Of a stretch of 64,000 bases of DNA, positions 32,359 to 63,441 are shown in pieces. The stretch comes from Malacoraja senta (Eukaryota): contig CM075994.1 in NCBI GenBank assembly GCA_038087875.1, positions 5,582,001 through 5,646,000 on the forward strand. The letters run 5' to 3'. The notes under the pieces were generated by a model. That model had not been told where the DNA came from. It did not search any database and saw nothing but the letters and a program-made list of their open reading frames with translations. Numbering within the stretch: the first letter of the stretch is position 1; the number at the start of each line of letters is the position of its first letter. The translations under genes and the position numbers were made by a program.

Positions 32359-32382
32359 CCGAGAAGATTACGAGAGTTAAAG
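32359..32382 (+). CDS. Gene B micro-exon, 24 nt (xEKITRVK)
   Basis: Acceptor tatttccaattag, donor aag|gtaaat. Confidence 0.5.
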
Positions 32383-62300: not shown

Positions 62301-63441
62301 CAAAATCCAACGGAGGAGTGGGATGTCAGATCACTGAACGAATAGAAAGGCAACTATATCAGTGGTTTGTTATTTTATTTATATTAGAAAATCTCCAGAT
62401 ATTATTAAACTTCGAGTCGGTTAAGTTGTTTGGAAGTAACTGTAACTTCCCGTGTTTTTCAATTTCTTAATATGTATAACCAATTTAAAAACAACGTTTA
62501 AGTATCTCTGACAATGACCGACATTTAAAACCATTAGGAAGATATTTAACGGTGCCAACTTTGGAAAGGACACCAAGGCGTTCCTGAGGACTGGTCAACT
62601 CTTCGTTGCAGAGTCTATTATTGTCCAGTGCAATCAATCCTGACGCGCACACGATATGTGCGACTGGACCAAAATGGGAGGGGACTGCAGTAGGCTGACA
62701 GCATTGAATGCGATATGCATTAATTGGTATTAATCTAAAGACATACAAGAAGCTGATCTCCAGAGGCGTCCCTGCCTTTCCATTCCAGTGCAGGATGTTT
62801 TGATGTGCAAGCAGGGCAATAACAAACAATAGTACACATTATACATAACAGATTCTCACCCTCGAAATTGATATAAAGGTCATAAATGTCATAAAGAATC
62901 GGCACATCAAGTCTATTGCGCCATTCAATCATGGTTGATCTATCTCTCCCTCGTAACCTCATTCTCCTGCCTTCTCCCCAGAACCTCTGGCATCTGTATG
63001 ATCAAGATAGAACTATTACGCGTGGAAACAGGCGCTTCGACACACTTTGTCCATGTTGACCAATTAGGGATTGTCCCATTTGCCTGCATTTGGCCCATGG
63101 CCATCTAAACCCTTCATCCAATATCTGCACAAATGTCTTTTAAAAGTCATAATTATACCCACCTCTGAAAAATAATCTGGCAACACCTTCCAGATAAGGA
63201 ATACCCTAAAATAGTTTAGTTTAGTTTAGAGATACAGTGCGGAAATAGGCCCTTCGGCCCACCGTGTCCACACCAACCAGCAATCCCCGTACACTAACAC
63301 TATGCTGCACATACTAGGGACAATTTACAATTTTACCTAAGTCAATTAATCTACAAACCTGTACGGCTTTGGAGTGTGGGAGGAAATGTATAAATATTTA
63401 CATTTATATTCCAGTGAGACAACTTCTCCTTAAAGACACTG
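32359..63441 (+). CDS. Partial multi-micro-exon gene B (coiled-coil tail, butyrophilin/BG-like architecture; hypothetical)
   Basis: 16 AG/GT-bounded phase-1 exons (ten of 27 nt, three of 36, two of 24, one of 33). They splice to [153 protein letters not shown] with no stop. Confidence 0.75.
33319..33761 (-). pseudogene. Possible divergent B30.2/SPRY-like terminal exon
   Basis: Phase-1 acceptor tttattttcag followed by an open frame of about 147 codons: [41 protein letters not shown], a loose match to PRY-SPRY motif order. Confidence 0.3.
33896..33922 (+). CDS. Gene B micro-exon, 27 nt (ELEKELNTT)
   Basis: Acceptor ttcgttttcttccag, donor gtgagt. Confidence 0.75.
33935..34615 (+). mobile_element. 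Old CR1 3' fragment
   Basis: [26 protein letters not shown]; (ttatgacc)-like tail. Further CR1 ends at about 35135-35285, 37690-38370 and 62880-63205. Confidence 0.8.
35742..35768 (+). CDS. Gene B micro-exon, 27 nt (STQLKAKEK)
   Basis: Acceptor tttcaatttcag, donor g|gtaagg. Confidence 0.7.
36803..36838 (+). CDS. Gene B micro-exon, 36 nt ([12 protein letters not shown])
   Basis: Acceptor ttttgtgttttccag, donor cag|gtaaca. Confidence 0.7.
37347..37373 (+). CDS. Gene B micro-exon, 27 nt (DRMLVQREN)
   Basis: Acceptor tttattttcatggcag, donor g|gtaaat. Confidence 0.65.
37519..37545 (+). CDS. Gene B micro-exon, 27 nt (ELVEKCSSS)
   Basis: Acceptor ttccatatgtag, donor g|gtaagt. Confidence 0.6.
39992..40018 (+). 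CDS. Gene B micro-exon, 27 nt (DDRLTQMKT)
   Basis: Acceptor ttctcacttctacag, donor cag|gtataa. Confidence 0.65.
40084..44387 (-). mobile_element. Degenerate Ty3/Gypsy LTR retrotransposon
   Basis: TG..CA LTRs at 44198-44387 and 40084-40265, PBS tggtgtcag, and a purine tract. Domain order is CCHC knuckle, protease IDTGA, RT, RNase [11 protein letters not shown], integrase [18 protein letters not shown]. Confidence 0.9.
42878..43190 (-). mobile_element. Short non-autonomous LINE-tailed element inserted in Gypsy RT
   Basis: caagatggcg head and L2-like 3' hairpin aaggcgtccttgagagtctttgaaaggcgccc with an A-rich tail; interrupts pol. Confidence 0.55.
44480..44506 (+). CDS. Gene B micro-exon, 27 nt (ELQDLRRRT)
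   Basis: Acceptor tttaaatttcag, donor gtgagt. Confidence 0.7.
46015..46041 (+). CDS. Gene B micro-exon, 27 nt (xEQLFEKEK)
   Basis: Acceptor ttgttatttttcag, donor aag|gtcagt. Confidence 0.7.
47391..47600 (+). repeat. 20-bp minisatellite, about 10 copies (agcccaggatagagccctgt)
   Basis: Seen directly. Confidence 0.9.
47900..50193 (-). mobile_element. CR1 LINE, same subfamily as 6594-9020
   Basis: [19 protein letters not shown] and GNYRPVSL motifs; colinear with the 6.6-9.0 kb copy. Confidence 0.9.
50897..50929 (+). CDS. Gene B micro-exon, 33 nt ([11 protein letters not shown])
   Basis: Acceptor tattcatttag, donor g|gtaagg. Confidence 0.5.
51227..51262 (+). CDS. Gene B micro-exon, 36 nt ([12 protein letters not shown])
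   Basis: Acceptor tttctgctttcag, donor g|gtgagc. Confidence 0.7.
53132..54165. mobile_element. Putative non-autonomous DNA transposon in a TA-rich target
   Basis: Imperfect terminal inverted ends (taggtatgttacaaaa / aaatttcgtaattgcta) flanked by (TA)n; no ORF. Confidence 0.35.
55466..55501 (+). CDS. Gene B micro-exon, 36 nt ([12 protein letters not shown])
   Basis: Acceptor ttttcaatcggcag, donor aag|gtaaaa. Confidence 0.65.
55670..56485. repeat. About 800-bp (CT)n polypyrimidine tract
   Basis: Seen directly. Confidence 0.95.
56555..56578 (+). CDS. Gene B micro-exon, 24 nt (GPPLDSSA)
   Basis: Acceptor ctttctgtaccaaag (AAG, weaker), donor g|gtgagt. Confidence 0.45.
57515..57541 (+). CDS. 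Gene B micro-exon, 27 nt (DLEVLRVTF)
   Basis: Acceptor gttctactacag, donor g|gtaagg. Confidence 0.65.
58101..58300. other. Assembly gap (200 N)
   Basis: Run of N. Confidence 0.95.
58310..60530 (+). mobile_element. Rex1/Babar-like LINE, internally deleted
   Basis: ALCFTETWL endonuclease motif, [18 protein letters not shown] and [25 protein letters not shown]. Related 3' fragments at about 45530-45990 and 51870-52320. Confidence 0.8.
60571..60597 (+). CDS. Gene B micro-exon, 27 nt (ECKILSLAC)
   Basis: Acceptor tcctcatttcag, donor gtaagt. Confidence 0.65.
61225..61825. mobile_element. GC-rich MITE (PIF/Harbinger-like ends) inserted into a SINE
   Basis: About 40-bp imperfect TIRs: ggcctgtctcacgagtctgcggtcattggc versus the reverse complement of the right end, ggctctgtcttacctgtttgcggtcatcggc. 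Confidence 0.6.
63415..63441 (+). CDS. Gene B micro-exon, 27 nt (xRQLLLKDT)
   Basis: Acceptor tttatattccag, donor g|gtaagg; paralogous to 16055-16081 (-). Confidence 0.8.

Follow-up and report, generated by a model that had tools for sequence, protein, structure and literature searches.

Phase-1 micro-exons in Malacoraja senta predict a long coiled-coil rod ending in a B30.2 domain

B30.2 proteins, including the TRIMs, butyrophilins and pyrin, are core immune sensors and adaptors. In the accessible portions of the literature, butyrophilins have few heptads and a B30.2 domain and occur in cartilaginous fish (PMC8813856, PMC12841164), the order of their inner half being heptad repeats and then B30.2 (PMC8813856), while chicken BG proteins combine immunoglobulin (Ig) V-type and transmembrane parts with 21-nucleotide (nt) exons and no B30.2 (PMC4046983, PMC5938342). 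The accessible text of these sources also raises, as speculation, orphan B30.2 domains that bind BG tails (PMC5938342, PMC8813856), and that of PMC10445537 describes TRIM-like proteins having lost domains. Here we describe a predicted plus-strand gene in a 64,000-nt stretch of the Malacoraja senta genome (1.94 Gb; assembly GCA_038087875.1), namely C18:5,582,001-5,646,000, where C18 is contig CM075994.1. This whole stretch is called the window, and coordinates termed window-style extend its numbering beyond 1-64,000. Between 32,359 and 63,441, a reading made from the sequence alone had proposed a hidden gene of 16 or more micro-exons encoding a butyrophilin- or BG-like coiled-coil tail.

On the evidence of splice signals, reading frame and homology, the plus-strand micro-exons are real protein-coding exons and form the front of a predicted 96-kb gene. 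The exon set was rebuilt by splice scans, since the sequence-only reading had supplied end points only, and is given below with the two assembly gaps; residue numbers refer to RefSeq models of the ray Narcine bancroftii (XP_069775384) and the catshark Scyliorhinus canicula (XP_038672306).

30743..30942, no strand: 200-N assembly gap, seen in the sequence, at the 5' ends of two divergent genes
32359..32382, plus strand: 24-nt phase-1 micro-exon, first found of the plus-strand gene; Narcine XP_069775384 residues 12-18
33896..33922, plus strand: 27-nt micro-exon; splice scan; Narcine XP_069775384 from residue 20
35742..35768, plus strand: 27-nt micro-exon; splice scan; Narcine XP_069775384 from residue 29
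36803..36838, plus strand: 36-nt micro-exon; Narcine from residue 38, catshark XP_038672306 from residue 119
37347..37373, plus strand: 27-nt micro-exon; catshark XP_038672306 from residue 131
37519..37545, plus strand: 27-nt micro-exon with weak acceptor; score 12.6; weak match, Narcine from residue 56
39992..40018, plus strand: 27-nt micro-exon; catshark XP_038672306 from residue 148
44480..44506, plus strand: 27-nt micro-exon; catshark XP_038672306 from residue 157
46015..46041, plus strand: 27-nt micro-exon; catshark XP_038672306 from residue 166
50897..50929, plus strand: 33-nt candidate, doubtful; splice scan
51227..51262, plus strand: 36-nt micro-exon; catshark XP_038672306 from residue 175
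55466..55501, plus strand: 36-nt micro-exon; splice scan; catshark match weak
56555..56578, plus strand: 24-nt candidate, doubtful, AAG acceptor; read from the sequence, below the exon-model threshold
57515..57541, plus strand: 27-nt micro-exon; splice scan; Narcine XP_069775384 from residue 65
58101..58300, no strand: 200-N assembly gap inside the plus-strand gene, seen in the sequence
60571..60597, plus strand: 27-nt micro-exon; its final A and the TG that opens 63415 form a Met codon, and ray and shark have Met there
63415..63441, plus strand: 27-nt micro-exon, last in the window; Narcine from residue 126, catshark from residue 247

Fourteen of these exons (ten of 27 nt, three of 36 nt and one of 24 nt, between 32,359 and 63,441) are solid, all with AG/GT borders, a length that is a multiple of 3 and an open phase 1, so that the scans recovered the features originally proposed for the set, including the ten exons of exactly 27 nt. 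They sum to 134 codons; with the weaker 50897 and 56555 the set comes to 16 exons and 153 codons, in line with the stop-free product of about 150 residues first read. The count of 16 segments itself stands for the 14 solid exons, the other two being doubtful, 50897 because the catshark matches of its flanking exons (residues 166 and 175) abut and leave no room for it. The predicted preference for AA, AC or AT as first bases is seen in 11 of the 14 solid exons, and none of the 14 ends in T, which makes a stop impossible at any junction codon. Roughly 44 Narcine residues lie between the matches that flank the gap at 58,101, so exons may be missing there.

The sequence-only reading had suggested a comparison with shuffled sequence, and its outcome favours real exons. 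Under a fixed generic splice score, with the lengths 27 and 36 nt picked after the data were seen, the interval 32.3-63.5 kb holds ten candidates on the plus strand and none in antisense, against a mean of 0.72 and a maximum of 4 in 100 dinucleotide shuffles. The wider examination took in 300 kb on each side of the window plus samples further out. Across both 330-kb arms there are 114 sense candidates versus 14 in antisense; the length spectrum shows 27 nt 68 times and 36 nt 46 times, each of 47 other lengths occurring 1-18 times. A phase-1 stop is present in 3/114 candidates, compared with 65/114 and 59/114 in the other frames and with 6, 6 and 5 of 14 in the controls.

Beyond the window, an exon model trained on 95 exons outside it (predictions past 64 kb overlap this training set) extends the gene by 31 further micro-exons at window-style 64,984-125,083. 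Under this model, about 46 micro-exons (466 codons) lead to a terminal B30.2 exon at window-style 128,011-128,531 (C18:5,710,011 onward), 64 kb past the window. This exon has a Pfam SPRY match (E 6.5e-12) and is intact, with a phase-1 acceptor at 128,011, in frame with the micro-exon chain and open over 172 codons; its best match in the PDB is BTN3A1 (81 bits), with TRIM58 at 74.8. Two junctions can be compared with other species. The last micro-exon ends in A and the B30.2 exon begins with TT, giving Ile, and the codon split between 60,571 and 63,415 predicts Met; Narcine and catshark have Ile and Met at these places. A motif scan for PRY, SPRY and Ig missed the B30.2 exon later detected by Pfam, and as it overlooked a true B30.2 exon its blanks carry little weight. 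Within 664 kb, Pfam was applied to the start regions and to 102 of some 110 open reading frames, the longest of a low-repeat set of 959.

The protein closest to the B30.2 domain is that of Narcine bancroftii (XP_069775384-390, 63% identity), which supports the cartilaginous-fish origin suspected from the letters alone. On XP_069775384, eight of the 15 window exons align in their genomic order, several of them abutting exactly, and 0/500 order shuffles scored as high; catshark XP_038672306 matches five middle exons that the Narcine model is without. The Narcine isoforms differ by 6 and 9 residues, those of catshark by 9, and those of a Narcine paralogue model without B30.2 by 8-23; the orthologous models thereby vary in steps the size of a whole exon, and the exon borders of the Narcine models were derived from such isoform differences. 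RefSeq isoforms of this kind rest on RNA-seq in the NCBI pipeline. The Narcine and catshark models, which present the same exon modules in the same order as the plus-strand gene, are likely its orthologues. Together, the splice-scan excess and the ordered matches to RefSeq models support the hidden protein-coding gene first proposed.

Family models are known in ray, skate, three sharks and chimaera, as follows.

Narcine bancroftii (ray): XP_069775384-390 and XP_069775418-428, RefSeq automated
Scyliorhinus canicula (catshark): XP_038672306-310 and a 945-amino-acid model, RefSeq automated
Leucoraja (skate): XP_055510696, RefSeq automated
Callorhinchus (chimaera): XP_042191566-568, RefSeq automated
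Hemiscyllium (bamboo shark): XP_060706632, RefSeq automated
Cetorhinus (shark): XP_078422387, RefSeq automated

These models are named zinc-binding protein A33-like, TRIM39/58/69-like, golgin-like or butyrophilin-like, and the N-terminal domains of those families are absent from them. The idea that annotation pipelines would miss such a gene is true only in part, as six chondrichthyan species have RefSeq models, under names that mislead. Rod length varies from about 50 to 770 residues across the family models, and the plus-strand gene differs from the RefSeq models in a rod that is longer via tandem expansion of 36+27-nt exon pairs.

Each pair of a 36-nt and a 27-nt exon encodes 21 residues, exactly three heptads. 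Within the 36-nt exons the hydrophobic fraction is 0.78, 0.74, 0.63 and 0.41 at positions 1, 4, 8 and 11, and it is 0.60 at position 3 of the 27-nt exons (position 15 of the 21-residue unit); hydrophobic residues at 1, 4, 8, 11 and 15 follow the a/d spacing typical of coiled coils. Together, Lys, Leu, Glu and Asp account for 47% of residues. Readings as a C-type-lectin neck or a collagen-like protein were rejected, there being no such domain and no Gly-X-Y. Since every exon is symmetric in phase 1, any of them could be skipped or duplicated without loss of frame. We favour, with moderate confidence, a reading in which the product would be a soluble, cytoplasmic, dimeric rod of about 460 residues with B30.2 heads, an immune adaptor whose length is set by splicing and duplication. 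The rod would dimerise and space its target-binding B30.2 heads, cells and lineages may set rod length and partner choice through splicing and tandem duplication, and paralogues lacking B30.2 might act as tail-only partners or decoys. We infer the dimerisation, localisation, ligand and immune role of the rod protein, the last being proposed from the B30.2 class and the TRIM-rich neighbourhood.

Phylogenetic analysis of B30.2 domains sets the family apart. The 12 family B30.2 sequences form one side of a long branch, with a support of 100 in the Shimodaira-Hasegawa-like approximate likelihood ratio test (SH-aLRT), away from 15 Ig-bearing and 17 RING/B-box sequences, and the same separation appears with 153 sequences; the tree is unrooted, its labels are motif-based, and it omits isoform duplicates and partial domains. 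The RefSeq family models placed in the tree fall on the same B30.2 branch as the plus-strand gene. With this separation, and in an unrooted tree, the family B30.2 domains are not nested among those of butyrophilins.

Compared with the three closest systems, the gene presents a mixture of features. It shares with the butyrophilins (BTN/BTNL) a B30.2 exon preceded by short heptad exons in phase 1. However, butyrophilins have few rod exons where this gene has about 46, their B30.2 is only about 30% identical to its own and lies on a separate branch, and they carry IgV, IgC and transmembrane parts, none of which was found for the plus-strand gene, whose 5' end lies at a gap. Chicken BG likewise has dozens of split-codon micro-exons that encode a long rod, a variable exon number and tandem multigene arrays near TRIM genes. 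Its exons are of 21 nt with one heptad each, whereas here 27- and 36-nt exons give three heptads per pair, and it has IgV and transmembrane parts without B30.2, whereas at least some genes of the present family end in B30.2. Both arms together hold 13 candidates of 21 nt, within the background range, and no BG-type tail of 21-nt exons was seen. Class IV TRIM proteins share with the gene a coiled coil, a C-terminal B30.2, a predicted cytoplasmic location and, through neighbours on C18, the locality, but they possess RING and B-box domains, both absent from the ten family proteins scanned, and a separate B30.2 branch; the coiled coil of the neighbouring TRIM is encoded by large exons, that of the plus-strand gene by micro-exons.

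Searches for the remaining parts of an Ig-type receptor were negative within their scope. No Ig, RING or B-box domain was found in 10 family proteins (9 genes), including the 945-amino-acid rod+B30.2 protein of catshark, and no segment of transmembrane strength in 8 family models, whose best 19-residue hydropathy was at most 1.48; a BTN control model was likewise low, at 1.38, and the threshold of 2.0 did label other Ig-bearing sequences. One array starts free of gaps, at C18 2.99 Mb; in the sequence upstream of it, the 47 open reading frames of 2.96-3.00 Mb contained no Ig, C2 or transmembrane exon, and no Ig, transmembrane, RING or B-box exon was present in 157/159 open reading frames near other candidate starts, with six more straddling locus borders. 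Searches of the animal's own genome scored the best 150 of 686 PRY, 150 of 1,517 V-set and 150 of 181 C2-set_3 candidates, and of the C2-set_3 matches 0/40 lie on C18 or C5. Genes of the conventional V-C2-PRY kind are present on other contigs, one with two 27-nt phase-1 exons before its B30.2, far fewer heptad exons than the plus-strand gene has.

We consider it unlikely, on this balance, that the gene encodes a membrane receptor of butyrophilin or BG type whose cytoplasmic tail is very long and whose exons for the signal, Ig and transmembrane parts have been lost in the gap at 30,743 and from the models of other species. Such a receptor would explain why heptads precede B30.2 as in the inner half of butyrophilins (PMC8813856, accessible portion), why a V-C2-PRY gene of the same genome has 27-nt phase-1 exons before B30.2, and why BTN3A1 is the best PDB match; the minus-strand paralogue described below is also without its first 200-245 residues at this gap, where real exons are probably missing. 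It would not explain the empty region upstream of the gap-free start at 2.99 Mb, the blank result in 157/159 open reading frames near other candidate starts, the 0/40 C2-set_3 matches on C18 and C5 among the best 150 of 181, the lack of Ig in all ten family proteins, or the distance between the family B30.2 branch and the 15 Ig-bearing sequences. Of the butyrophilin- or BG-like character first proposed, the heptad rod and the B30.2 end are retained, and the cytoplasmic tail of an Ig-type membrane receptor is so far not supported: no Ig, transmembrane or RING exon was found near the starts examined, no Ig or RING domain occurs in the ten family proteins, and the B30.2 falls outside the butyrophilins. 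The absence of Ig, RING and B-box domains in ten of ten proteins and of transmembrane segments in eight of eight models, together with the B30.2 branch of their own, leaves a gene that appears to resemble a butyrophilin's inner half joined to a BG-like rod, membership of either family being so far unsupported.

Several points weigh against the soluble rod that we favour. The 5' end of the gene lies at the gap at 30,743, and no contig listed from two sequencing runs bridges it; the contigs of both runs are of unrecorded kind and behave like DNA, confirming the window DNA and being uninformative on splicing. Just left of the gap, at 30,160-30,173 on the plus strand, a short ATG-containing stretch of unique sequence with a good phase-1 donor was noted; it is a possible first coding exon of the plus-strand gene, for which no homologue was found. 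Automated models of micro-exon genes can be 5'-truncated, and those of skate, bamboo shark and the B30.2-less Narcine paralogue start with short hydrophobic stretches, which could be signal peptides or intron-derived artefacts. The chain of the whole gene against catshark is marginal (17/500 shuffles as high), and no MHC (major histocompatibility complex) class I match lies on C18 (0/88). Finally, constraint on the micro-exons is weak, the ratio of nonsynonymous to synonymous substitution rates (dN/dS) being 0.77 over 30 non-independent paralogous pairs, and one further exon beyond the window, at window-style 120,906, has 28 nt where its paralogue has 27, which breaks the frame if the exon is included; either the assembly is wrong here or the break is real.

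The last two points, and the missing start exon, are what would be expected of a decaying pseudogene whose duplication was too young to have erased its exons. This we regard as very improbable: phase-1 stops affect only 3 of 114 candidates although identity between paralogous blocks has fallen to about 72-75%, the 172 codons of the B30.2 stay open, with a dN/dS of 0.53 between the two C18 paralogues, skipping of the 28-nt exon keeps the reading frame, and at other places in the window both DNA runs differ from the assembly by single bases. The reading frame is thus maintained while the sequence drifts, in the micro-exons and in the B30.2 pair.

The plus-strand gene is not alone in the window. 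The claim of an empty opposite strand is correct for 32-63 kb and overlooked a mirror array at 1-27 kb, where the 27/36-nt scan gives six minus-strand candidates versus none opposite. Its exons in the window are as follows.

26508..26534, minus strand: 27-nt micro-exon, first found of the minus-strand paralogue; splice scan
16055..16081, minus strand: 27-nt micro-exon, paralogue of 63415; splice scan
14186..14221, minus strand: 36-nt micro-exon; splice scan
13390..13416, minus strand: 27-nt micro-exon; splice scan
9886..9921, minus strand: 36-nt micro-exon; exon model
5977..6003, minus strand: 27-nt micro-exon; splice scan
4774..4809, minus strand: 36-nt micro-exon; the array runs on for at least about 300 kb left of the window

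This array starts at 26,534 and runs left to C18 at about 4.635 Mb. The minus gene tracks the 945-amino-acid catshark model from about residue 200-250 to 760 (3/200 shuffles as high) and lacks an equivalent of what precedes, which means that the gap at 30,743 probably hides its first exons. No such ordered match to the catshark protein was found for the plus-strand array beyond 150 kb (164/200 shuffles as high), which is still ongoing at C18 6.04 Mb, the edge of the examined sequence. Two exon patterns used as probes are strand-consistent on C18, plus at about 3.0-4.35 Mb, minus at 4.7-5.6 Mb and plus from 5.6 Mb onward, and recur on C5 (15.4-18.1 Mb) and three small contigs, giving arrays of about 3 Mb on C18 and a further 2.7 Mb or so on C5. 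Genome-wide, the pattern totals are 67 and 50 versus 67 and 31 in controls; with totals this near the controls, the signal is one of clustering. The C18 arrays are several genes, not one.

Some of these genes lack the B30.2 end. The plus block at 120-197 kb and the minus block at -204 to -300 kb are inverted copies, about 75% identical, from an old duplication, and the minus copy is without the segment matching 126.5-152.4 kb, the one that carries B30.2. In a protein search of the genome that scored the best 150 of 681 candidates, close relatives of the B30.2 were found at C18 3.73 Mb (71%) and at three places on C5 (37%). Each of the five family B30.2 matches has a phase-1 acceptor, weak in one case, and is located inside a micro-exon array or at its edge; two of the four relatives have clear micro-exons within 6-7 kb upstream. 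A PRY match at C18 4.559 Mb is part of a separate TRIM and lies outside the array.

That the roughly 3 Mb of C18 arrays hold only two family B30.2 matches among the best 150 of 681, and that the minus paralogue and one Narcine paralogue model are without B30.2, could also point to a non-immune structural or germ-cell rod that binds the cytoskeleton as the chicken BG-derived zipper protein does, with B30.2 as a docking module and many rod-only paralogues; the soluble BG tail displaces tropomyosin according to the accessible part of PMC5938342. We hold this to be quite unlikely, because the catshark counterpart of the B30.2-less rod ends in B30.2 and because rapid duplication, weak constraint and TRIM neighbours would better fit an immune family.

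Several side observations concern the arrays and the window. A strong donor at window-style 153,327 (plus) and -246,602 (minus) is kept in both duplicates with a reading frame that is not conserved, and is possibly a 5' untranslated exon of the next array gene, whose first exons would not be heptad-like. After a gap, C18:5,946,001-5,995,000 has exons that are near-exact repeats of those at 5.90-5.94 Mb, which reflects duplication in the assembly or else a tandem copy of very recent origin, and contigs C4876 and C4996 contain close copies of C18 array exons. The end of the long minus array is cut off by an ATCT-type simple repeat of about 30 kb (C18:4,604,000-4,635,100) beside a gap and a TRIM gene. 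Introns are filled by decayed retroelements at 17,900-23,600 (plus), 27,500-29,600 (minus), 40,400-44,200 (minus) and 48,000-50,200 (minus), which we take to be a LINE, an RTE-like element between the two genes, a long terminal repeat element and CR1-like pieces.

About 1 Mb from the window, at C18:4,540,000-4,600,000, an RPA12/ZNRD1 exon lies between two TRIM genes of the RING/B-box type, and in one of these the coiled-coil exons are duplicated; 26 of the best 150 of 686 PRY matches fall on C18. ZNRD1 is an MHC marker. A firm MHC linkage was nevertheless rejected: the RPA12/ZNRD1 exon and the TRIMs are some 1 Mb off, yet C18 holds none of the 88 class I matches, so linkage is suggested at most. 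On another contig, C2938:644,508-645,131, matches to the alpha-1 and alpha-2 parts of MHC class I are close neighbours, both in open frames of 502 residues, as might be expected of a class I-like gene that is retroposed or poor in introns. Also considered was a link to mammalian TSBP1, which is unsupported.

A literature search, from whose reach subscription papers largely fell outside, found no published description of a rod+B30.2 family, and none appears in the accessible portions of PMC4046983, PMC5938342, PMC8813856, PMC12841164 and PMC10445537. We tentatively propose, as an idea still short of the probable, that the genes belong to an undescribed chondrichthyan family predating the chimaera-shark split, a set of untethered "BG tail plus B30.2" rulers in which 27/36-nt cassettes set length and head-bearing and head-less forms pair. 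Despite megabase arrays, databases have this family only as short or misnamed models. If the proposal is true, it would provide a natural single-chain case of the B30.2-on-long-tail complex proposed for chicken BG. The separate B30.2 branch, with members in chimaera, sharks and rays and with a micro-exon rod, would represent a domain layout outside the TRIM, butyrophilin and pyrin classes. Such a family would bear on the origin of butyrophilin and BG tails, and would offer a clean system in which to ask whether coiled-coil length depends on which exons are skipped.

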